A stretch of 51,248 bases of DNA. Origin: a virus. Under the pieces are notes generated by a model, which saw only the letters and a list, made by a program, of their open reading frames with translations, searched no databases and was not told the DNA's origin. Location of the stretch: the IMG/VR virus record IMGVR_UViG_3300009656_000002; one strand, 5' to 3'. Positions within the stretch are counted from its first letter, which is position 1. Every line of letters begins with the position of its first letter. Made by a program: the position numbers and the translations under genes. Shown here in pieces: positions 1-21,894 of the stretch.

Positions 1-123
1 AGTCGCGCTTCGTGCGGTGGACGGATGAGGAGAAGGCAGTCGTGCGCACGGCGACCTCGCGCGCCGATGCACAGCGCCTCTATCGCGATGCGTTCCCGGA
101 CTCGAAGCGCGGGCCCGGTGCCG
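1..123. repeat. Terminal direct repeat, left copy (circular-assembly overlap)
   Basis: Bases 1-123 are identical to 51126-51248; an ORF reads straight through the junction. Confidence 0.95.
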
Positions 124-4302: not shown

Positions 4303-4866
4303 ATGGCGGGACGCGGAAAAGGCAACGAAGCACAGAAACGTGCGGAGATAGCCGGCCGGAGAGCAATCGTGGCCGAAGAGTACCGCAAGAAGAAAACCAC
4401 CCGGCAGATCGCCGAAATGCTCGGGTGCGACCACACCACGGTCGTCCGGGACGTCAAAGCCATTATCGCGGAACGCCGGAAGCACGCCCAGATCGATATA
4501 GAGGACGCGCTCGCCAACGAGATCGCCGGCCAGAACGCCTCGGAGGCGAACCTTCTGGCGATCGCCGAAGACGAGGAGCAAACCCCCGCGACCCGGATCG
4601 CCGCGGAGGCCGCTCTCGTCCGGGTCCGGGGCGAACGCGCGAAGCTCCAGGGCCTCTATGCCGCGCAACGGGTCGAATTGACCGGGAAGGACGGCGGGAC
4701 CATTGACGTCCGAAACTATCACGCCGAGCTCGCTTCGGTCCTCGATAAGGTCTTTACCGCCGGAGCTCCGCCGGCCGTTCATGGAGAGCCTGAGCCCTCA
4801 GGCGGCGAAGAGGCTGGCGACGGATTGGGAGATCCTCTTAGCGAGGGACAACCAGCTCCCACCTGA
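4303..4866 (+). CDS. terS: Terminase small subunit
   Basis: HTH QIAEMLGCDHTTVVRDV; C-terminal RVELTGKDGG motif; directly upstream of and overlapping terL. Confidence 0.8.
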   Translation: MAGRGKGNEAQKRAEIAGRRAIVAEEYRKKKTTRQIAEMLGCDHTTVVRDVKAIIAERRKHAQIDIEDALANEIAGQNASEANLLAIAEDEEQTPATRIAAEAALVRVRGERAKLQGLYAAQRVELTGKDGGTIDVRNYHAELASVLDKVFTAGAPPAVHGEPEPSGGEEAGDGLGDPLSEGQPAPT

Positions 4867-6484
4867 AGGCGACTGGACCAAGTGGCTTTTACTTTCTGGG
4901 AGAGGAAGCGGGAAGGCCCTCGCGCTCGACACGCCCCTCCCGACTCCCGGCGGATGGACGACCATGGGGGAGGTCCGGCCCGGGGCCCGCCTCTTCGACG
5001 AGACCGGCGCCCCGTGCACCGTTACGGCCGTGCACGAGGTCCAATTCGGCCGGCCGTGCTACCGGGTGGTCTTCGATGACGGATCGGCCATAGTCGCCGA
5101 CGCGGGGCACCTCTGGCGCACAACGGCGCGCGCCACGGGCCCGGCCACGGTCACGACCGATGAGATCCGCGCCACCCTCACCCACGGGCCCCGCGGCGAC
5201 TTCAACCACTCCATAGACGGCCCGGGAGACCTCTGCCGCGCGATCGTCGCCGTCGAGCCCGTCGCGTCCGTCCCCGTGCGCTGTATCGTGGTGGACTCGC
5301 CCTCGCACCTCTTCCTCGCCGGCCGCTTCATGGTCCCGACCCATAACAGCCGCGCGGGGGCCGAGTGGGTGATCAAGACGGCCCGCAATAACCCCGGGTG
5401 CCGGATCGCCATGGTCGCCAGGACCGCGGCCGACGTGCGCGACGTCATGATCGAAGGCGACTCGGGGATCATGAACATCAGCCCCGCCGACTTCACGCCC
5501 CGCTACCGGCCGAGCATCCGCCGGCTGGAGTGGCCGAACGGGAGCCAGGCCACCCTCTTCAGCGCCGAGGAGCCCGACGCGCTCCGGGGCCCCCAGCATC
5601 ATTTCGGGTGGTTGGACGAGATCGCGGCGTGGTCCCACCCCGAGGCTTTTGAAATGTTCCTCTTCGGCCTCCGGCTCGGCACTCACCCCCGGGTCGTGAT
5701 CACAACGACCCCGCGGCCGACGAAGATCATCAAGGATCTCATCGCCGACCCCACCTGTGTCACCGTCCGGGGCTCGACCTACGAGAACCGGGCCAACCTC
5801 GCGCCCGCCTACTTCTCCCAGATCATCCGGAAATACGAGGGGACACGCCTGGGGCGCCAGGAGATCAACGGCGAGATATTGGACGACAACCCCGGGGCCC
5901 TCTGGACCCGGGCCATCATCGACGCCAACCGGGTATCGGCCCTCCCCGAGCTCGTCCGGATCGTCGTCGGCGTCGACCCCGAAGCGTCCAGCGGAGAGGA
6001 GTCCGCCGAGACCGGGATCCTCGTCGTGGGACTCGGTGCCGACGGCCACGGGTACGTCCTCGACGACGTGACGATCCGCGGGACGCCCGGGGAGTGGGGC
6101 GCGCAAGCCGTGAGCGCCTATTCCCGGTGGGAGGCGAACAAGGTCGTGGGCGAGGTCAACAACGGCGGCGAGATGGTTGGGTATGTGGTCGGGACGTGCG
6201 CGAACGCGGCCAACGTCTTTGTACCGTACCGGGCCGTCCGGGCGTCCCATAGCAAAGAAGCCCGCGCCGACCCCGTGAGCGCCCTGTATGCTCAAGGGCT
6301 CGTCCATCACGTCGGCGTCTTCGCCGAGCTCGAAGATCAAATGACAGAGTGGGTACCGGGCCAGGGTATGCGGTCGCCGGATCGTGTCGACGCCCTGGTG
6401 TGGGCCATAACGGACCTGATGCTCGACATTGAATACGAGGCCACGGTCTATGACGAGGTGCCCGCTCCATTGACCTCCTGGTAA
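4703..6484 (+). CDS. terL: Terminase large subunit (Terminase_6 type) with intein
   Basis: Walker A GRGSGK/S, LRGPQ, Walker B WLDE, nuclease VGVDP and DRVDALVW. Confidence 0.95.
   Translation: MTSETITPSSLRSSIRSLPPELRRPFMESLSPQAAKRLATDWEILLARDNQLPPEGDWTKWLLLSGRGSGKALALDTPLPTPGGWTTMGEVRPGARLFDETGAPCTVTAVHEVQFGRPCYRVVFDDGSAIVADAGHLWRTTARATGPATVTTDEIRATLTHGPRGDFNHSIDGPGDLCRAIVAVEPVASVPVRCIVVDSPSHLFLAGRFMVPTHNSRAGAEWVIKTARNNPGCRIAMVARTAADVRDVMIEGDSGIMNISPADFTPRYRPSIRRLEWPNGSQATLFSAEEPDALRGPQHHFGWLDEIAAWSHPEAFEMFLFGLRLGTHPRVVITTTPRPTKIIKDLIADPTCVTVRGSTYENRANLAPAYFSQIIRKYEGTRLGRQEINGEILDDNPGALWTRAIIDANRVSALPELVRIVVGVDPEASSGEESAETGILVVGLGADGHGYVLDDVTIRGTPGEWGAQAVSAYSRWEANKVVGEVNNGGEMVGYVVGTCANAANVFVPYRAVRASHSKEARADPVSALYAQGLVHHVGVFAELEDQMTEWVPGQGMRSPDRVDALVWAITDLMLDIEYEATVYDEVPAPLTSW
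4916..5347 (+). mobile_element. Class-3 mini-intein (144 aa, no homing endonuclease) in the TerL Walker A motif
   Basis: Starts Ala (ALALDTPLPTP); block B HLW, block F VRC, block G PTHN followed by Ser +1; removal restores GRGSGKS. Confidence 0.9.
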
Positions 6485-6922: not shown

Positions 6923-7690
6923 ATGGGCGCCGGCTATGCCATGCGGAACTGCGTGAAGCCGTGCGGGTCGCTCGACACCCAGAACACCCGGCTTTTGGAC
7001 TTCGTCGACGTCACGAACGACTCGGAAATGCCGATCATCCACGACACCCTCCTGAGTCCGCCGGCCGAGATCATGATCTGGGAGGGCCGGCCCCGGCTCT
7101 ATGCGGGGAAGTTCGTCCACCTCTACACGGAGGATTATCGATTTGAACAACTCTGGCGCCGGCCGGAGTTTTATTTACCCAAGATCCAGGCGTTCGCCGG
7201 GATATTCTCGCCCGACTTCTCCCTCTTCCGCGACTGGAATATCCACGTCCAGCGGAATAACGTCTACCGTTCGCGCCTCCTCGGCGCCTACTGGCAAGCG
7301 AACGGGATCCCCGTGATCCCGATCGTCTCGTGGGCCGGGCCCAAGACGTATTCGTTCTGTTTCGACGGGATCCCCGAGGGGTCCATGGTCGCGGTCTCGA
7401 CCGTCGGCGTCCACCGCGAGCGCGAGGCGCGGGCGATGTTCAAGGCGGGGCTCAAGGAGATGCTCGACCGGATCCACCCGCGGGCCGTCATATGCTACGG
7501 GAGAATCGAGAAGCTCCTCGGGGAGGTGCCGGAGCACTTCTACCCCTACAAGCCCGACCTCGTCGCGAAGGTCTCGCCCCTCTACGAATATGTCCGGAAG
7601 GACGCCCGGCTCATCCCCCAGGACGGGCCCCTCGTGCACCTGGAGACGCCGGACGGGCCCCGGCGGGAGCTCGTGGAGGCGCTCGCGTGA
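6923..7690 (+). CDS. DUF4417 domain protein
   Basis: HLYTEDYRFE, SPDFS, YRSRLLGAYWQ.NGIPVIP.VSW, FCFDG and VAVSTVG motifs. Confidence 0.85.
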   Translation: MGAGYAMRNCVKPCGSLDTQNTRLLDFVDVTNDSEMPIIHDTLLSPPAEIMIWEGRPRLYAGKFVHLYTEDYRFEQLWRRPEFYLPKIQAFAGIFSPDFSLFRDWNIHVQRNNVYRSRLLGAYWQANGIPVIPIVSWAGPKTYSFCFDGIPEGSMVAVSTVGVHREREARAMFKAGLKEMLDRIHPRAVICYGRIEKLLGEVPEHFYPYKPDLVAKVSPLYEYVRKDARLIPQDGPLVHLETPDGPRRELVEALA

Positions 7691-10264: not shown

Positions 10265-10531
10265 GTGATCGCAACGTGCCCCCATTGCTCGTATGTCTGG
10301 CGATCGGATGCCGGGAGGGATCGGATCACCTGCCCCAACTGCGGCCGGAAGTTTCCCCGCCCCGCGGTCGACATCGTCGTCCTCGGGCGGGGCGTCCCCC
10401 TCAAGACGACCTGCGACCTCTGCGGGTATCCGAAGGCGGAGCTCAATGTCTGCCGGATCGATGGCGAGTCGGCCTTCGTGTGCTCCGTCTGCCTGAAGGG
10501 GGCGACCGCCCCGCCCCACCCCCAGGAATAA
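10265..10531 (+). CDS. Double zinc-ribbon protein
   Basis: CPHCSYVW...ITCPNC...CDLC...NVCRIDGESAFVCSVC. Confidence 0.65.
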   Translation: MIATCPHCSYVWRSDAGRDRITCPNCGRKFPRPAVDIVVLGRGVPLKTTCDLCGYPKAELNVCRIDGESAFVCSVCLKGATAPPHPQE

Positions 10532-10643
10532 ACCAACAGTCTTTTTATAGCCCGCCGCGATCTCTAAGTAAAGGGGCACTAATGGTGGGTCGGGGTCGTT
10601 ATCGGAGGCCGGGGAACACTCAGCGCGACCGCGGGGGGCACTA

Positions 10644-13157
10644 ATGGCCGCCCGCGTCTCCAACCGGGTGATCGCCGAACGGATCGATGAATTAGAAACG
10701 TTTATCGAGGATTCACTCACCGAGGCCGTCTCGGCGAACGCCTCGTGGAAAGACCCCCTCACCCTCACCCTCGCGCTCGGCGACGGCGAGGACGAGTATT
10801 CAGTGGATCAGATCCGCGAGGCCGCGCGGAATTGTTACGAGGCGTACCACGCGAACGCCCTCATCCGCCGGGCCGTCAACGTCAAGAGCCACTTCGTCTG
10901 GGGCCGGGGCGTCACCATCACCTCGGACCAGGTAGAGGTCAACGCGGTCCTCACCGACTGGCTCGAACGAAACCAGGGAGAGCTCGGCCACCTGGGGCGG
11001 GTCGAGAAGGAGATCCAGGTCCAGATCGGCGGCAATTTATTCTTACTCTGCCAGGTCGACGAGCTCGGCGCCGTGGAGGTCGTGACCGTCCCGATCAGCG
11101 AGATCGCCGGCTACCTCCGCGACCCGAAAAACCCGCGGAAGGTCTGGTACTGGAAACGGACGTTTACGGAGTACACGGTCCAGAAGGACGGCACGAGTAC
11201 GGGAAAGAGCCAAACCTACTGGTATCCGGCGCTCGGGCATAATCCCGAAAAGCAACCGAAGACGATCGGGGGGACGCCCGTCGTCTGGACCGACCGGCTC
11301 TACCACGCGCCCCTCCCGCGCGCGGGAAAGGGCGTGTACGGCCTCCCGGCGATCGTGGCGGGGATCCCGTGGGGCAAAGCCTACACGCAACACCTGAGCA
11401 ACGTGGCGAGCATCAACGCGGCCCTCGCGACCTTCGCGTGGAAAGCGACCGGGGCGAACCCGGCCGCGGCCCGCGCCGTCGCGGACATCGTCGACCGCCA
11501 GAAGAGGACGCCGATCCCGGCCGGGTCCACGCTCGCCTCGACCCCCGGGGTCACCATGGAGCCGATCCGGACGGCCGGGGTCGCCACGAGCGCGGACGAG
11601 GCCCGCCGCTTCGCGCTCATGGTGTGCTCCGACACGGACGTCCCCGAGCATATCCTCCTCGGGGATCCCAGTACGGGGAACCTCGCGACCACGAAGACGA
11701 TGGAGCGCCCCCTGGAGCTCGCCGTGCTCGACCGTCAGGCGTGGTGGGTCGATACCCTCACCCTCCTGGGGTCGTTCGCGGTCGAGGCCCGGGTGCTCGC
11801 GCAAGGCTTCGCCCCGCTCACCGGCAAGGTCGAGTTCGACGACTGGGGCCGGCGCCAGGTGCTCGTCTCCGTCCGCCGGGTCGTGAAGGACCACGAGACG
11901 GATCGCGAGGTCACGGAAGCCCGGGCCGCGAAGGCCGCGCCCGGCACGAAGGCGACGAAGAAGGAGGCCGCCGACGCGAACCTCGGGCCCGTCCGGGAAG
12001 AGGTCGCCGAGGTCACGGTCGAGTTCCCCGCGATCCTCGAACACGACCCGGTCTCGGAGGTCGCCGCCATCATCAGCGCCGCGACCGCCGGCACGGGGTC
12101 GCTCGCCGGGATCATGGACCGGGCCACCTTCCAGCGGTTGCTTTTGCGGGCCCTCAACATCCCGAACGTGGACGACGCGATCGCCGAGATGGACGACGAG
12201 GACATCGCCCGCCAGGTCGAGAGGCATGAGAACCCGCCCGAGCTGGAGCTCGCCCGCCAGGCCCAGGCCGCGAAGCTCGGCGGGGAGGAGCCCGACGAGG
12301 ACGACGAGGACGCGCCGCCGGCGAAGAAGGGCGTGAAGAAGCCGACGAAGCGCTCCCGGGACAACGACGTCGAAGAAGGGATCGAAGAGTCGCTCTCGGC
12401 CGTCGCGACCGCGCTCCAGGAGGTCGCCCGGACGGCCCTGGTGGAGGCGGAGCTCGCCGAAGCCTTCGATCCCACGGCCCCGGGGAAGTGGGTCACCCTG
12501 AAGGACGGCCGGCGGGTCTACATTAAGGACAAGGGGGCCGGCACGGGCCCGATGGGCCCCGGGACCGCCCAGTCGACGCTCGGGGCGGAACCGGCACCGG
12601 CACCGGAGCAACTGGCACCCGGGCCCGTCGACGAGCGCGGCCGGCCGGCCGCCGTGCGGAAACGGCTCGACGAGTTCACCGAATGGCACGCCGAGGACCG
12701 GGTCGAGAGCCTCCTCGTCGTGGCCCCCGACGGCTCGACCGTCTTCTACGGGACCGGGGACGTGCGAGGCGTCCCGTTCGACCCCGAGGACGCGGCGAAG
12801 TTCCCGGGATGCACGGCGATCCACAACCACCCGAGCGACAATTCCTTTTCGGATAAGGATCTCGCGATGACCGTAACGCACGGGATCGCCGAGCACGTCG
12901 TCGTCTCGCCGAAGTACGTCTTCTCCCTCGACACAACGGCGTACTCCGATCACGACGCGCACCTGGCCCTTGCCCGGCACGCGGTCGCCGAGGGCTCCCT
13001 GTATGCGAAATATCGCCCGAAGGTCCGGTCTGGAGAGATGGGCGAGAAAGAGGCGAGCAATGAGCACACACACGAGACCATGCAGATCGTGGCGTCCGAG
13101 TATCCCGGGATTCACTACACCCGGTGGATCCGCGGAAAGGGGATGGGGATACGATGA
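10644..13157 (+). CDS. Portal protein with C-terminal WxTxxG motif and JAB/MPN-like domain
   Basis: First large structural gene after terL; portal-like N-terminal about 510 aa (NALIRRAVNV, GGNLF, YGLP); acidic linker; KWVTLKDGRRVYI; E...HNHPSDNSFSDKD. Confidence 0.75.
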   Translation: MAARVSNRVIAERIDELETFIEDSLTEAVSANASWKDPLTLTLALGDGEDEYSVDQIREAARNCYEAYHANALIRRAVNVKSHFVWGRGVTITSDQVEVNAVLTDWLERNQGELGHLGRVEKEIQVQIGGNLFLLCQVDELGAVEVVTVPISEIAGYLRDPKNPRKVWYWKRTFTEYTVQKDGTSTGKSQTYWYPALGHNPEKQPKTIGGTPVVWTDRLYHAPLPRAGKGVYGLPAIVAGIPWGKAYTQHLSNVASINAALATFAWKATGANPAAARAVADIVDRQKRTPIPAGSTLASTPGVTMEPIRTAGVATSADEARRFALMVCSDTDVPEHILLGDPSTGNLATTKTMERPLELAVLDRQAWWVDTLTLLGSFAVEARVLAQGFAPLTGKVEFDDWGRRQVLVSVRRVVKDHETDREVTEARAAKAAPGTKATKKEAADANLGPVREEVAEVTVEFPAILEHDPVSEVAAIISAATAGTGSLAGIMDRATFQRLLLRALNIPNVDDAIAEMDDEDIARQVERHENPPELELARQAQAAKLGGEEPDEDDEDAPPAKKGVKKPTKRSRDNDVEEGIEESLSAVATALQEVARTALVEAELAEAFDPTAPGKWVTLKDGRRVYIKDKGAGTGPMGPGTAQSTLGAEPAPAPEQLAPGPVDERGRPAAVRKRLDEFTEWHAEDRVESLLVVAPDGSTVFYGTGDVRGVPFDPEDAAKFPGCTAIHNHPSDNSFSDKDLAMTVTHGIAEHVVVSPKYVFSLDTTAYSDHDAHLALARHAVAEGSLYAKYRPKVRSGEMGEKEASNEHTHETMQIVASEYPGIHYTRWIRGKGMGIR

Positions 13158-14383
13158 TCGGGATTGACGACTCGGCACACGAGCACCTGTATTACTCCCC
13201 GGTGTGCGCCCATTGCCGGCACCTGGACGAGACCACGCGGTTCAAGTGCGCCGCGTTCCCCGACGGGATCCCGTTCGCCATCTGGGACGGCGAGAACAAG
13301 CACACCTCGCCCGTCGACGGCGACCACGGGATCCGGTTCGAGCCCCTCGCGGCCATCGCGGAGGAGGTCGACAACCTCGACACCTTCCGCCTTCCGCGCA
13401 AAAAGGCGAAGGCGAAGACCAAGACCCGGGACACCTACGGGGCCCCGGGCCACTGGGTCACCATCCACGGCCGGCACGTCTTCATAACCGATGAGCCGAA
13501 CAACCCCGACCGCCCGTACGGGATCCCGTCGGAGCACCCCGGGCTCAAGGATATGCCCGATTGGCCCGAGGGCGAATCGGTCTTCGACCACAAAGTCCCG
13601 GTCCCGAAGGGCCTGGCCGAAGCGAAGACGACCGCCGACCTCGAAGCCTGGTACAAGGAGAATTACGAGGACTTCAAGATGGAGTTCGACGGGGCCGACT
13701 TCGAGACCGCCAAACAGACGGCGATCACGTATAACGAGCTCGCCACGCGGTATTACGACCTCGGTGTCAATGTGAGCCGGGTGACCGTCGACGACTGGAT
13801 GGACGAGAACGTGTACGCCGCGTATGAGAACGGGAAGATCTACCTGAACGGAAAGGCGTGGAAGGATCCCGTTGGGCTCGCCGAGTCCGTACGCAAGAAC
13901 GAGGCAACCGGCTTCCACCCCAAGGGCGTGACCGATCCCCAGTCGATCCTCGTCCACGAATACGGGCACGCCGTTATGGACGCGGTGAGCAAGGACCGCG
14001 CGACCACGACCTTCACGGGCTACACCCGCGCAAGCTCTCTTGCGGATCAATATGCGCGCCCGCCCCGTGAGGGGACCGTCGACGCCGCCATGCTTGAGTA
14101 TTACCGGAGCTCCGACTCACGGGCCGCCATTTCGGAGTACGCCGTCAAGGGGCGCTCCATCGACGAGGAGACATGGGCCGAGGGCTTCGTCGCGATCCAT
14201 TACGGCGCCCCGGCGAGCGCGCTCCCGCGCGTGAAGATGCAACGGAATATCATCGAGATCCTGACCGAGTCGCGCCAGAAGGATCTACCGTGGCCGGTCG
14301 CCGTCGAAACGCTCCCCGAGAAGAAGCGCAAAAAGGCCGAGGCGGAGCTCGACGCCGTGCTGAGGAGGCTGAGGGACGTATGA
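13154..14383 (+). CDS. Modular cargo protein: Cys/His CxAFPDGIP domain + WxTxxG motif + zincin metallopeptidase
   Basis: CAHCRH..CAAFPDGIP..GDHGIRFEP; HWVTIHGRHVFI; HEYGH..ISEYA..EETWAEGF. Confidence 0.75.
   Translation: MIGIDDSAHEHLYYSPVCAHCRHLDETTRFKCAAFPDGIPFAIWDGENKHTSPVDGDHGIRFEPLAAIAEEVDNLDTFRLPRKKAKAKTKTRDTYGAPGHWVTIHGRHVFITDEPNNPDRPYGIPSEHPGLKDMPDWPEGESVFDHKVPVPKGLAEAKTTADLEAWYKENYEDFKMEFDGADFETAKQTAITYNELATRYYDLGVNVSRVTVDDWMDENVYAAYENGKIYLNGKAWKDPVGLAESVRKNEATGFHPKGVTDPQSILVHEYGHAVMDAVSKDRATTTFTGYTRASSLADQYARPPREGTVDAAMLEYYRSSDSRAAISEYAVKGRSIDEETWAEGFVAIHYGAPASALPRVKMQRNIIEILTESRQKDLPWPVAVETLPEKKRKKAEAELDAVLRRLRDV
13317..13359 (+). repeat. 43-bp exact direct repeat, copy 1
   Basis: acggcgaccacgggatccggttcgagcccctcgcggccatcgc, identical to 14525-14567. 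Confidence 0.95.
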
Positions 14384-15447
14384 CCTACACCAGGGCGCCG
14401 GCCTGTATGGAGTGCCGGCATTACGAGCGCGGGACGGACGACCCGGTCCCGCGGTGCGCCGCGTATCCCGACGGGATCCCGGACGCCATCTTCTTCGACG
14501 GCAACCCGCACACGGCCGCCAGGAACGGCGACCACGGGATCCGGTTCGAGCCCCTCGCGGCCATCGCCGAGGCCGAAGCCTATCCCGGGACGGAGTGGAG
14601 AACGATAAACGGCCGGCGCGTCTGCATATCCGGAGATTGCCCCAAGGGGACGCGGATCGAAGACCTGCCGGGAGAGAAGGCCGGGGCCGGTTCGTTGGAC
14701 GATCGGCGGTACCTCGATGACAACGAGAAGGACATGTACCTGGGGGTCGACAAGCGATACGATCGCGACAAGAAAAAATACTATGTCCTCAAGTCGGACG
14801 AGGAGGAGAAGCGGCAGCGGGATCAAAAGGACCGCGAACACCGCGAGGAGCGGGCCCGGCTCGAACGGGAGGCGAAAGAGAAGGATCCGGGCGCGTTTTC
14901 AGTGGTGGTCGGGAAGACGACGGTCCCGGGCGCCGTGTACAGGGTGGACTACCCGCTCGGCAAAAACTTGCACTGCGCATATTTCGACAAAGACGGAAAC
15001 CATATCGATACCGACATTGGAAAGGCAACGCCCGACGAGATCGCCCAGTGGAGCGCCCGCGCGAAAGAGGTCGTCGCGACCACCGCGAAGATCGGGATCG
15101 ACCCCGCCGAGGATCTCTATGTCCGGTACGGCCGGATCCCCAAGGGCGGGCGCTCGCTCAATCACGCCACGCGGGAACTGGAGAAAGGCACGTCGGTCTA
15201 TTCGGGCAAGTTCGACCCCGAGACGGGGTTATTCGACATCGCCGACACGCTCGGCACCGGGCAATTCCAGGTACTCGAAGCGGCGGGAAAGACCCCGTAC
15301 CTCGTCCGCGGTGAGAAGATCGGCACCGGGTCCGACGGCGAGCCCGTGCTCAAGGACGCCTATGCCACCCACCAACTGAAGGTCACCGCGGACGGCCTCG
15401 CCATCGTCAAGCGTCTCAGGCGGCCACGGAAGACAGGCGGGGGCTGA
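14380..15447 (+). CDS. Modular cargo protein: Cys/His domain + WxTxxG motif + unknown effector (possibly ART-like)
   Basis: CMECRH..CAAYPDGIP..GDHGIRFEP; EWRTINGRRVCI; YVRYG..GTSVY in the C-terminal part. Confidence 0.7.
   Translation: MTYTRAPACMECRHYERGTDDPVPRCAAYPDGIPDAIFFDGNPHTAARNGDHGIRFEPLAAIAEAEAYPGTEWRTINGRRVCISGDCPKGTRIEDLPGEKAGAGSLDDRRYLDDNEKDMYLGVDKRYDRDKKKYYVLKSDEEEKRQRDQKDREHREERARLEREAKEKDPGAFSVVVGKTTVPGAVYRVDYPLGKNLHCAYFDKDGNHIDTDIGKATPDEIAQWSARAKEVVATTAKIGIDPAEDLYVRYGRIPKGGRSLNHATRELEKGTSVYSGKFDPETGLFDIADTLGTGQFQVLEAAGKTPYLVRGEKIGTGSDGEPVLKDAYATHQLKVTADGLAIVKRLRRPRKTGGG
14525..14567 (+). repeat. 43-bp exact direct repeat, copy 2
   Basis: Identical to 13317-13359. Confidence 0.95.
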
Positions 15448-15449
15448 CC

Positions 15450-15674
15450 GTGCCGCCCCGGTGCGAGGACTGCCGCTTCGCCGCCATTGAGGACGCGAAG
15501 CTCGGGACCGGCGACTGCCGCCGGCACCCGCCCTGGCCCGGGAGGGGCTACCCCTGTGTCTCGCGCGATCAATGGTGCGGGGAGTTCCGGCCGCGCGACT
15601 CTCCGGCCGTCGTGCCGATCACGCCCCGGCCGATCAGGTTGAACCTCGTGGACCTCCGGGGGCGGAAGGTGTGA
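15450..15674 (+). CDS. Small Cys-rich protein
   Basis: CEDCRF...GDCRRHPP...WCGEF. Confidence 0.65.
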   Translation: MPPRCEDCRFAAIEDAKLGTGDCRRHPPWPGRGYPCVSRDQWCGEFRPRDSPAVVPITPRPIRLNLVDLRGRKV

Positions 15675-16633
15675 CAGCGCGGATCATCTGCGGCGACGCG
15701 CTCACGGCCCTCTGCGACCTTCCCGACCAGTCGGTTAATACCTGTGTCACCTCGCCCCCGTACTGGGGGCTGAGGGACTATGGCGTCGACGGACAGATCG
15801 GTCTCGAAGAGACGCCGGAGGCGTACGTCTCCCGGCTCGTCGAGGTCTTCCGCGAGGTGCGGCGGGTGCTCGCCGACGACGGGACGCTCTGGCTGAACCT
15901 CGGCGATTCGTACAACGCGGCGGGGCGGGCCGGACACGGGACACGGATCGGCTACAAGCAAGGGACCAACCGGGCGAGCGCGAACGGCTCCGACGCGAAC
16001 CGACCAACGGCACCGGAGTTAAAAGAAAAAGACCTCGTCGGCATCCCGTGGCGCGTCGCGTTCGCGCTCCAGGCGGACGGGTGGTATCTCCGGCAGGACA
16101 TTATTTGGCACAAGCCGAACCCGATGCCGGAGAGCGTTCGCGACCGCTGCACGAAGGCACACGAATACCTCTTCCTCCTGAGCAAGTCACCGCGGTACTG
16201 GTTCGACCATGACGAGATGACAGAGGAGTCGGTCTATCCCCCCGGCACCCGGAAGGACGTTCCGAAAGGGGGCTTCAACTCGAAGTATGCCGGTGACGTT
16301 GCGCGGAAGGGCGACGAGTCTTTCCGGGCAATCCGCGAGAGGCGCAACCGCCGCGACGTGTGGACGGTCGCCACGAAGCCATACGCCGAAGCCCATTTCG
16401 CGACGTTCCCCCCAGACCTGATCCGGCCGTGCGTCCGCGCGGGATGCCCGGTCGGCGGCGTGGTCCTCGACCCGTTCGCCGGTGCCGGCACTACCGGACT
16501 GGTCGCGCTCGAAGAGGCGCGGAACTTCCTCGGGATCGAGCTCAATCCCGAGTACGTCGCGCTCATCGAAAAGAGACTCGCGCCCCTTCAGAGCATCGCC
16601 ACCCTCGACCAATTCACGGAGGCCGAAGCGTGA
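15671..16633 (+). CDS. DNA N4-cytosine/N6-adenine methyltransferase (beta class)
   Basis: Catalytic VTSPPY precedes SAM-binding DPFAGAGTT; IIWHKPNPMPES. Confidence 0.93.
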   Translation: MTARIICGDALTALCDLPDQSVNTCVTSPPYWGLRDYGVDGQIGLEETPEAYVSRLVEVFREVRRVLADDGTLWLNLGDSYNAAGRAGHGTRIGYKQGTNRASANGSDANRPTAPELKEKDLVGIPWRVAFALQADGWYLRQDIIWHKPNPMPESVRDRCTKAHEYLFLLSKSPRYWFDHDEMTEESVYPPGTRKDVPKGGFNSKYAGDVARKGDESFRAIRERRNRRDVWTVATKPYAEAHFATFPPDLIRPCVRAGCPVGGVVLDPFAGAGTTGLVALEEARNFLGIELNPEYVALIEKRLAPLQSIATLDQFTEAEA

Positions 16634-17532
16634 CCCTCGCCCTCGCGGAGGCCGCGGCCGAAGCCCTCGTCCGGGTCGAGGTGGCCCGGCGCGAGCTCTT
16701 CCTCGCCCCGCTCCGGTCGCGCATGGCCCGGGTGGCCGGCGTGCACTTCGATAATCAGAAGACCGTCCTGGAGCGAAAACTCCGCGAACGGGGCGCACAC
16801 CTCAACGAGTCCGTCTGTCGCGAGGGGCTCGGGGACGCCGTCGCGGGGCTCATGATCACGATCTTCGACGAGTTCGCGGTCGATACGGCCGACGCCATGC
16901 GCGAGATCCTGATGATGGCCATGGAGGGCGCCATCAAGCACCGGCTCCTCGATTTTGGGTACGCCATGAGCTTCTCCCTTCGCAACCCGGCGGCCCAGAG
17001 ATACCTCAAGACCTACTGTCTCAACGAGATCAAGAAGATCGACGCCACGACCCTGAAGATCATGAAGGGGATCGTCTATCAAGGGCTCTATGAGGGCGCC
17101 TCTTACACGGAGATCGCGGCCCGCATGGTTTCGAGATATGCCGCGTTCGGCACCCCGGTCCCCCAGCATCACCTCCGCAACCGGGCCGAGCTCATCGCCA
17201 CGTACGAGACCGCCACCGCCTACGAGGCCGCGGGCCGCGAGGTCGCGGACACCATCGCGAAGAAGGGGATCCCCATTGAGAAGTCGTCGATCACCGTGGG
17301 AGACGACCGGGTCGACGCTGAATGTCTGGCAAAGGAGGCGCAGAAGTGGATCCCCCTCGACCAACCCTTCACAACCCACCTTCAGAAGGACAACGTCGAG
17401 CACCAGCGCTCTCCTTTCCACATCGCGTGCCGGTGTACTACGATTTACCGGGTGGCAACGAAACGGGCCCGGGAGATGCTCGCCCGGTCCCCGAACCCGG
17501 CACCCGTCGAATTTTACGCTATCATTAAATAG
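16630..17532 (+). CDS. MuF/SPP1 gp7-like head morphogenesis protein
   Basis: RAELIATYET, GDDRV..EC and H..CRC motifs. Confidence 0.8.
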   Translation: MTLALAEAAAEALVRVEVARRELFLAPLRSRMARVAGVHFDNQKTVLERKLRERGAHLNESVCREGLGDAVAGLMITIFDEFAVDTADAMREILMMAMEGAIKHRLLDFGYAMSFSLRNPAAQRYLKTYCLNEIKKIDATTLKIMKGIVYQGLYEGASYTEIAARMVSRYAAFGTPVPQHHLRNRAELIATYETATAYEAAGREVADTIAKKGIPIEKSSITVGDDRVDAECLAKEAQKWIPLDQPFTTHLQKDNVEHQRSPFHIACRCTTIYRVATKRAREMLARSPNPAPVEFYAIIK

Positions 17533-20877: not shown

Positions 20878-21894
20878 ATGAAATCGCCAGGTGGTGACGG
20901 CCCGGGAGTCCTGATTCAGGAGGACTTTCAGCCCCTCGTCGAAGCCGAGATCGCGGCGGACGGAACCATCCCTGTCTGCGTGATTAAAGCCGGCTGGTCG
21001 AAGAACAAGCGCTATTATTCAGAGAGCGTTCTGACGCGCGCGGCCTCCATCTACCGGAAGGGGACGCACATGCTCTGGAACCACCCCGGGCCGAACGCAT
21101 TACGCGAACAACCCGGCGGCGACTTGAACGCGATCGCGTCTGTTCTGAGTGAAGAAGCGCACTTCGACCCCGTCGGCCCGATCAATCCGAAGACGGGAAA
21201 ACCCAACGGAGCGGGCCTCTATGCCCGGGCCCGGTTGATCTCCACGTATCGCGACCGTATCCTGGAGCTCGCCGAGACCATCGGCCTCTCGCACCGCGTC
21301 CGCGGCCGGGAGGTCGCCGGGACGGCCGAGGGGAGGACGGGGAAGATCGTCGAGGAGATCTACGACCCGGCGAAGTACGGGCTCCCGCCCGTGACCGTCG
21401 ACTGGGTCGCGAGGCCCGCCGCGGGCGGGTCGGTCCTCGTCGAAGAGGAGGAGATGCACATGGTAGACGAAGAGATCACGAACTTTGAGGAGGCGATCGC
21501 CGAGCGCGACGCCCGGATCACGACCCTGGAGGAGGCTCACGCCGCCGCCGAGGCCACGATCGCCGAGCACATGACCACGATCGCCGGCTTCCGCGCGCGG
21601 GAGATCCTCGCCGAGAGCATCGCCGCCGCGAAGCTCGACGAGGCCGTGGAGGCCCGCGTCCGCGCCCTCGTTGCGGGGACGGCCCTGCCGATGACCGACG
21701 ACCACGCCCTCGACGAGGCCGCCTATACGGCCGCCGTCTCGGAGACCATCGAGGCCGAGAAGAGCTACGCCGCGACCATCGCGGAGGCCGCACGCGCCGC
21801 GCCCGTCGGCGTCCCCGGCGGGTCCGGGTCGACCGGCGCCGTCAGCGACTTCCTGGACCGCACCGGCGGGATCCGGGCCCCGCGGAGGGGATAG
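20878..21894 (+). CDS. Prohead protease/scaffold
   Basis: WNHP and IGLS motifs, VDWVARPAAGG; Ala/Glu coiled-coil C-terminus; upstream of capsid genes. Confidence 0.75.
   Translation: MKSPGGDGPGVLIQEDFQPLVEAEIAADGTIPVCVIKAGWSKNKRYYSESVLTRAASIYRKGTHMLWNHPGPNALREQPGGDLNAIASVLSEEAHFDPVGPINPKTGKPNGAGLYARARLISTYRDRILELAETIGLSHRVRGREVAGTAEGRTGKIVEEIYDPAKYGLPPVTVDWVARPAAGGSVLVEEEEMHMVDEEITNFEEAIAERDARITTLEEAHAAAEATIAEHMTTIAGFRAREILAESIAAAKLDEAVEARVRALVAGTALPMTDDHALDEAAYTAAVSETIEAEKSYAATIAEAARAAPVGVPGGSGSTGAVSDFLDRTGGIRAPRRG

Follow-up and report, generated by a model that had tools for sequence, protein, structure and literature searches.

A portal gene with a C-terminal JAB/MPN+ domain

We examined a 51,248-nucleotide stretch of viral DNA (IMG/VR virus record IMGVR_UViG_3300009656_000002, referred to here as the window), in which a single unbroken open reading frame (ORF) at positions 10644–13157 of the plus strand codes for an 837-residue protein that joins a portal to a predicted C-terminal JAB/MPN+ metalloprotease-like domain; the parts of this protein, the two cassette genes that follow, the MuF-like gene and the head protease gene described below lie on the same strand. 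The portal core (approximately residues 1–540, 10644–12263) is identified by a match to the PHROG portal family phrog_10963, which spans residues 50–556 (E = 2.9e-60), and a portal-like core is predicted confidently in a full-length AlphaFold2 model built from 48 sequences. The core is followed by a disordered linker (residues 546–581, 12279–12386) with a predicted local distance difference test (pLDDT) score below 50 in the full-length model, rich in Asp and Glu at first (an acidic run at about residues 546–556) and then in Lys and Arg, and by a long helix (residues 572–607, 12357–12464) assigned by DSSP on the same model. A junction motif, WVTLKDGRRVYI (residues 616–627, 12489–12524), was located by motif scan and is modeled as a β-hairpin with strands at residues 614–618 and 624–628. 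A second disordered linker, of Gly, Pro and Ala (residues 630–657, 12531–12614; pLDDT about 30 in the full-length model and 59–64 in a model of the domain), leads to the RadC-like JAB/MPN+ domain of about 175 residues (661–835, 12624–13148), which is supported by AlphaFold2, Foldseek and a family hidden Markov model (HMM; independent E-value 1.9e-56). Within it are the codon for the catalytic glutamate E688 (12705–12707), which is conserved in the family and aligns with the corresponding glutamate of E. coli YicR, and the metal-binding and catalytic motif HNHPSDNSFSDKD (residues 727–739, 12822–12860), in which H727, H729, S736 and D739 are picked out by family conservation. The spacing is HxH-x6-SxxD, one residue fewer than the canonical x7.

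Identical copies of the 837-residue protein are present in 20 contigs and at a further IMG/VR locus (L013), and because of this recurrence we regard the fusion as real and rule out an assembly chimera.

Conservation, fold and nearest relatives of the domain

An exhaustive HMMER search of 1.84 billion representative sequences, using the last 207 residues as query, returned 284 representative clusters matching the domain at E ≤ 1e-3, of which 17 match at E ≤ 1e-10, and the pattern HNHPxxxSFSxxD is present in nearly all of them. When 180 copies of the domain were aligned to the family HMM, the catalytic residues were found to be conserved throughout (E688 in 176, H727 in 178, H729 in 179, S736 in 174 and D739 in 178), as were the Asn (169/180) and Pro (174/180) of the HNHP signature; the most variable element is a long helix at domain residues 139–166. 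An earlier note on this DNA had described a portal running past an acidic linker into a JAMM motif, and that description is borne out by E688, HNHPSDNSFSDKD and the matching clusters. With 284 such clusters and the E/H/H/S/D set retained in 174–179 of the 180 copies, a chance occurrence of the motif is ruled out. The note had placed the start of the feature at 12489; this is indeed a boundary, being the first base of the junction motif (W616), but the JAB fold itself begins at about residue 661 (nucleotide 12624).

A structure prediction, which the note had proposed as a check on its assignment, gives an MPN fold. The AlphaFold2 model of the domain, built from 82 sequences, has a pLDDT of 91.6 and a predicted template modeling score of 0.83, and its top Foldseek match among PDB structures is RadC of Chlorobium tepidum (2qlc; E = 2e-3, probability 1.0), with Cap3, AMSH, PfJAMM1 and AF2198 ranking below it. 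In the VIA structural search the top 12 structures are all JAB/MPN, and nucleotide deaminases occupy lower ranks; AMSH/Sst2 and Rpn11 are also among the JAB/MPN structures that head the structural lists. Although the Foldseek scores are moderate, the homogeneity of the list and the agreement of the catalytic residues uphold the MPN+ assignment. About 175 residues at the C-terminus of the portal protein are thus modeled as a JAB/MPN+ domain with its catalytic residues intact, and the assignment made in the note holds by motif, fold and family.

The nearest clade is RadC, as judged by sequence signature, Foldseek rank and hhalign. The domain carries HNHPSD, which is of the HNHPSG type found in RadC, and alignment of the family profile with E. 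coli YicR (hhalign probability 79%, E = 1.6e-5) covers the catalytic core, pairing the glutamate and the HNHPS..S..D motif. The match is confined to YicR residues 113–184, and the N-terminal helix-hairpin-helix of cellular RadC/YicR is absent from the portal protein, where a disordered linker and the junction hairpin lie ahead of the JAB domain instead. The JAB domain differs from RadC by an additional helix at its N-terminus and a helical hairpin, about 50 residues long, at its C-terminus. The Pfam RadC model (PF04002) does not match this portal protein at E ≤ 1; one relative (P0004) exceeds the Pfam cut-off (28.8 against 22.1 bits), and a few others match weakly. Searches of the whole protein against Pfam (at E ≤ 1) and NCBIfam, and of the JAB domain against PDB sequences, Pfam and NCBIfam, gave no matches, and the family profile found only a spurious helical match among PDB sequences. 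INPHARED phages searched by both DNA and protein gave no matches, and a word-indexed protein search with the C-terminal region recovered only the protein itself. We therefore file the domain as a divergent RadC-like JAB family for which current libraries have no model.

Exchange of enzyme cassettes on near-identical portals

Comparison with related loci shows that the JAB domain is one of several interchangeable enzyme cassettes and not a part of the portal machine. The portal of a sister virus, at locus L004, is 93% identical to the window portal over 665 aligned residues, with a core that is 99% identical, and near-identical to about residue 600, but past the junction it has an ADP-ribosyltransferase (ART) domain in place of the JAB; its JAB is a separate next gene, 63–69% identical to the window JAB. 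At L014 the portal core is 96% identical to that of the window, whereas the JAB fused to it is only 34% identical with the linker included and 26% for the domain alone, and a second JAB lies on the gene after the portal. Three JAB cassettes follow in succession at L008. The catalytic residues are intact in all seven cassettes compared, one of which has a 12-residue loop insertion, and the JAB paralogues diversify in a surface helix while the catalytic center is kept. Near-identical portals bearing this JAB, a different JAB or an ART argue for accessory conflict cargo and against a structural role of the domain.

The same pattern is seen among 53 relatives of the portal. Short forms (534–627 residues) stop after the core, and every long form (765–856 residues) continues through WVT(I/L)xGxHxxI into an ART, a HEYGH zincin, a JAB or an unknown domain. 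The cassettes found in this lineage are thus JAB variants, ADP-ribosyltransferase, HEYGH zincin and unrecognized domains.

The recombination joint can be seen in the DNA. By blastn, window positions 10476–12451 correspond to L004 1–1976 (99.2%) and positions 12425–14674 to L004 2890–5154 (90%), such that about 913 bp containing the ART cassette of L004 are missing from the window. The two segments overlap by 27 bp (12425–12451) at the 3' end of the long helix, just 5' of the junction, where a 25-nucleotide stretch is 100% identical between the window and L004. Locus L013 follows the window (99.5%) as far as 13364, after which the zincin cassette is missing from it. A search of the window for an ADP-ribosyltransferase gave matches to the adaptor parts alone and no such enzyme. 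The junction motif, WVT(L/I)xxGRxVxI, begins at 12489, 13454 and 14596 in the window, is found in all of the related loci, and stands before every variable effector domain. The corresponding regular expression matches just 3 of 150 bacterial and other JAB homologues, all three from this virus group, although it misses P0003, which bears a variant; we therefore rejected the junction as a general feature of the JAB family. A conserved head-protein carrier thus bears an enzymatic domain that varies and is swapped through recombination, as in MuF and polyvalent cargo.

Genes downstream of the portal

Two further cassette genes follow the portal, and all three cassette genes in the window overlap by ATGA, with the start of the second overlapping the portal stop. 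The second cassette (13154–14383) has an N-terminal MIGIDDS, a Cys/His mini-domain with the pattern CxxC...C...FPDGIP...GDHGI (a match to phrog_33375), a junction at 13454 and a HEYGH zincin-like domain that matches phrog_7153 ('zinc-finger protease'). The third (14380–15447) consists of a Cys/His domain, a junction at 14596 and a C-terminal domain that is also the tail of a related portal (P0175) and that matched no family. As a free protein of 75–80 residues, the Cys/His domain recurs after the JAB, or the last JAB, in L008 and L107.

An N-terminus of the form hydrophobic-D-D-S/R is present in ten of the 12 genes lying directly after a JAB, seven from the archaeal-virus group and three from bacterial phage contigs; the sites include the window (13154–13175, MIGIDDS), L004:3640, L008:3640 and 4596, L014:9992, L103:5581, L105:5561 and L107:653. 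The post-JAB genes of L108 and L109 lack such a start, as do the three genes placed after a zincin or ART cassette. A separate small partner or immunity ORF was looked for after the JAB in the window, and none was found. This candidate partner or plug peptide of the JAB might act as an inhibitor, as a substrate or in docking.

Distribution of the JAB family

The family is common in bacterial phages and is not specific to archaeal SAMPs. Among 64 mid-length homologues, Phage_Mu_F is the partner domain in 27 and an XkdF-type prohead protease in four, and others carry ART-PolyVal, NUDIX or 2H domains. Several homologues are labeled as head morphogenesis or minor head proteins by PHROGs, and a portal family is matched by one of 847 residues (P0085). 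Polyvalent proteins make up the giant homologues, in which as many as four copies of the JAB accompany DRAT-like ART, NUDIX and glutamine deamidase domains. Among predicted viral structures, uncharacterized phage proteins and 'minor capsid proteins' match best, with phage RadC proteins ranking next. One stand-alone JAB member sits among a portal, an ART gene and a 1488-residue polyvalent protein. On an unrelated contig, L105, a Pfam DUF4417 gene (4373–5017) lies directly 5' of a stand-alone JAB gene.

The virus genome and its host

The two ends of the window (1–123 and 51126–51248) are 100% identical over 123 nucleotides, and the sequence is therefore a complete genome of about 51.1 kb, either terminally redundant or circular. 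Its genes include those for a large terminase, the portal, MuF and a head protease, as well as tail genes. A MuF-like head morphogenesis gene (16360–17532) matches phrog_2468 and other MuF families, and a head maturation protease (20878–21894; phrog_15531, E = 1.5e-11) is a candidate for release of the tethered domain. Between the effector cassettes and the MuF gene is a DNA methyltransferase (15572–16633; phrog_67, E = 6.7e-77), which completes a set of modules typical of polyvalent proteins, here as separate genes. An ORF at 6923–7690 matches a PHROG nuclease family, phrog_940. At L008 (1–1674), a protein encoded 5' of the JAB cassettes has an S-adenosylmethionine lyase domain (PF23780) with junction motifs on both sides; S-adenosylmethionine lyase is a classic anti-restriction activity.

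The host is most likely a methanogen of the Methanomicrobiales, as indicated by binning, which does not in itself prove it, by McrA and by a related portal. The viral contig was binned with a 2.28-Mb archaeal genome (1533 bits with the archaeal small-subunit rRNA model and 1120 with the bacterial one), and the two have similar G+C contents (67.8% for the genome and 67.4% for the contig). The McrA of the binned genome is 94% identical to that of Methanospirillum-labeled metagenome-assembled genomes and 90% to that of Methanoregulaceae-labeled ones, and a related portal is found in a Methanoregula chromosome. A haloarchaeal host, suggested by the G+C content and the acidic linkers, was rejected because the bin has McrA and its relatives are Methanomicrobiales. 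The binned assembly (contigs C32, C67 and C68) encodes two GG-ended ThiS/MoaD proteins, side by side on C67, and one JAMM protein.

Discussion

We favor the interpretation that the domain is a portal-tethered effector held inside the virion, a RadC-like metal-dependent hydrolase delivered as cargo in the manner of MuF and polyvalent proteins, and we place its probability at roughly 60%. The C-terminal crown of a portal faces the capsid interior, and ART and zincin domains are protein-modifying enzymes. Together with the long disordered linkers, the alternation of the JAB with ART and zincin cassettes, and the helix-diversified paralogues, this is why we read the domain as virion-internal conflict cargo. 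Recombination at the repeat encoding the junction would place cassettes on the portal or on the genes just behind it. Up to 12 copies of the JAB domain would be built into each virion beside the DNA exit channel, packaged in the head like MuF or polyvalent cargo. The tether would then be cut, probably by the head protease (20878–21894) or by another peptidase, and the domain would either be delivered with the DNA or act at the portal vertex early in infection. Its chemistry is probably that of a metallo-(iso)peptidase, in which case it would break an amide or isopeptide linkage of a host protein, defense and regulatory proteins being the most plausible targets. The junction hairpin may serve simply as a joint, or it may be used for docking or cleavage.

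The earlier note had interpreted the domain as a virion-borne deconjugase countering ubiquitin-like (Ubl) host defenses, or as a toxin. The JAB/MPN+ identity has held up, and a virion-borne effector or toxin is supported by context, through the portal fusion, the alternation with ART on a near-identical portal, and the MuF and polyvalent relatives; specificity for SAMP or other Ubl conjugates finds no specific support, the nearest clade being RadC. An enzyme that strips Ubl modifiers from host defense or regulatory targets, as compared with the PfJAMM1/HvJAMM1 desampylases, Cap3 of CBASS (the anti-phage signaling system based on cyclic oligonucleotides), and the Bil deubiquitinase, has a small chance of being correct. 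The structural neighbors Cap3, AMSH and PfJAMM1 give it a footing, but RadC domains rank closer than the Ubl proteases, and Iyer et al. (PMC5512222) argue that RadC-like JABs lack the groove for a ubiquitin tail and use nucleic-acid or nucleotide substrates. Moreover, the ThiS matches in the assembly are all on C67, with no ThiS-type Ubl on the viral contig (E1 and E2 families were not searched), and MuF proteins of bacterial phages widely carry the family, so it has no tie to archaeal SAMPs. Our literature search likewise found no description of a phage-borne JAB reversing Ubl-based defense. We consider it similarly improbable, if worth weighing, that the domain processes host or viral DNA or RNA, or a signaling nucleotide, early in infection, which is the hypothesis of Iyer, Zhang and Aravind as argued in PMC5512222. 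Such an activity would fit with the HNHP signature and the best Foldseek match being those of RadC, with a fold common to the nucleotide deaminases in the lower ranks of the structural search, and with the co-occurrence of NUDIX and 2H phosphoesterase domains in homologues. A 2025 review (PMC11981726) notes that the structural neighbors of RadC are all metalloproteases and calls its function open.

A somewhat more doubtful proposal is that the JAB serves as a docking or processing module, which would bind, and might also cut, the N-terminal IDD(S/R) peptide of the downstream protein, such that it is plugged as in a toxin–immunity pair or recruits the next cassette to the portal. The hydrophobic-D-D-S/R start in 10 of 12 post-JAB genes and in none of the three following zincin or ART cassettes is consistent with this, as are the free Cys/His mini-proteins after the last JAB of L008 and L107 and the ATGA overlaps of the window genes. 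However, the motif is short, L108 and L109 lack it, and the archaeal cases share ancestry and so are not independent. We think it very unlikely that the domain is an inter-microbial polymorphic toxin of MuF type, aimed at competitors of a lysogen rather than at the infected host. It would share with such toxins a conserved head-protein N-terminus and recombining variable C-terminal tips (PMC5576092), but no separate immunity gene follows the JAB in the window, and the contig represents a free viral genome with terminal redundancy rather than an integrated provirus. We also know of no delivery route from a portal to a neighboring cell.

Going beyond our preferred reading of a virion-internal effector, a more elaborate and rather speculative picture, which we would not expect to hold in full, is that of a portal-anchored polymorphic effector system in tailed viruses of Methanomicrobiales. 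Here the hairpin would be a recombination joint and perhaps a release site, and each JAB, an enzyme and a docking point in one, would bind the N-terminal IDD(S/R) peptide of the cassette that follows. Effectors (JAB, zincin, ART and others) would thereby be linked non-covalently in a chain and loaded into the capsid from the portal; the JAB paralogues, once released, would act as diversified isopeptidases against Ubl-type or other defense proteins of the host.

RadC-like JABs are among the commonest enzymes of prokaryotes and mobile elements that have no assigned function, and this locus offers a clean natural experiment in which near-identical portals carry differing enzymes, with the recombination joint visible in the DNA. 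It extends the theme of MuF and polyvalent cargo to methanogen viruses, and it defines constructs for assays (residues 661–837, alone or together with the N-terminal peptide from downstream). The kind of system is not new, and deconjugation is best treated as hypothetical.

Comparison with known systems

The closest parallels are the RadC-like JABs of phage and plasmid polyvalent proteins (PF04002; Iyer et al. 2017, PMC5512222), which have the same HNHP-type JAMM signature and MPN fold and a shared context, lying in virion-associated multi-enzyme proteins beside ART, zincin, NUDIX and DNA methylase domains. The portal JAB differs from these in having no Pfam RadC match, an H-to-S spacing one residue shorter and extra helices, and the modules are split over several coupled genes, the first of which is fused to the portal. 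The MuF polymorphic toxins (Zhang et al. 2012, PMC3482391; Jamet et al. 2017, PMC5576092) likewise combine a head-internal carrier and a C-terminal enzyme tip that recombines; the tip can alternatively be an ART in both, and 27 of 64 mid-length JAB homologues are themselves on MuF. Here, by contrast, the carrier is the portal, with a separate MuF gene 3 kb downstream, no stand-alone immunity gene, and an archaeal host. Portal–effector fusions such as BcepF1.124 (Iyer et al. 2017) also have an enzymatic domain on the portal C-terminus, interpreted as injected cargo, and the main text of that paper (PMC5512222) mentions only PBECR, 2H and InPase fusions; the locus described here goes beyond those mentioned there in its conserved WVT(L/I)xxGRxVxI junction and the swapping of domains on near-identical portals. 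From the JAMM Ubl-deconjugases (PfJAMM1/HvJAMM1, Cap3, Bil, AMSH and Rpn11) the domain is set apart by the signature and profile that place it with RadC, and by a viral contig with no ThiS-type Ubl, E1 and E2 families not having been searched.

T4 Alt and P1 Dar, enzymes that are packaged in the head and injected along with the DNA, are a probable functional parallel by analogy. They differ in being free internal proteins with targeting signals rather than portal fusions, and their folds are unrelated to that of the JAB, with the exception that Alt is related to the ART cassette of the sister virus. The pre-toxin junctions of polymorphic toxins, such as VENN of CdiA, are similar in that a short conserved peptide before a variable domain coincides with the recombination joint, although the sequences are unrelated. 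RadC-like JAB cargo on head proteins was thus already known, and our literature search found no description of a portal–JAB fusion; what is new is the direct fusion of the two in a methanogen virus, together with the junction motif and the IDD(S/R) peptide.

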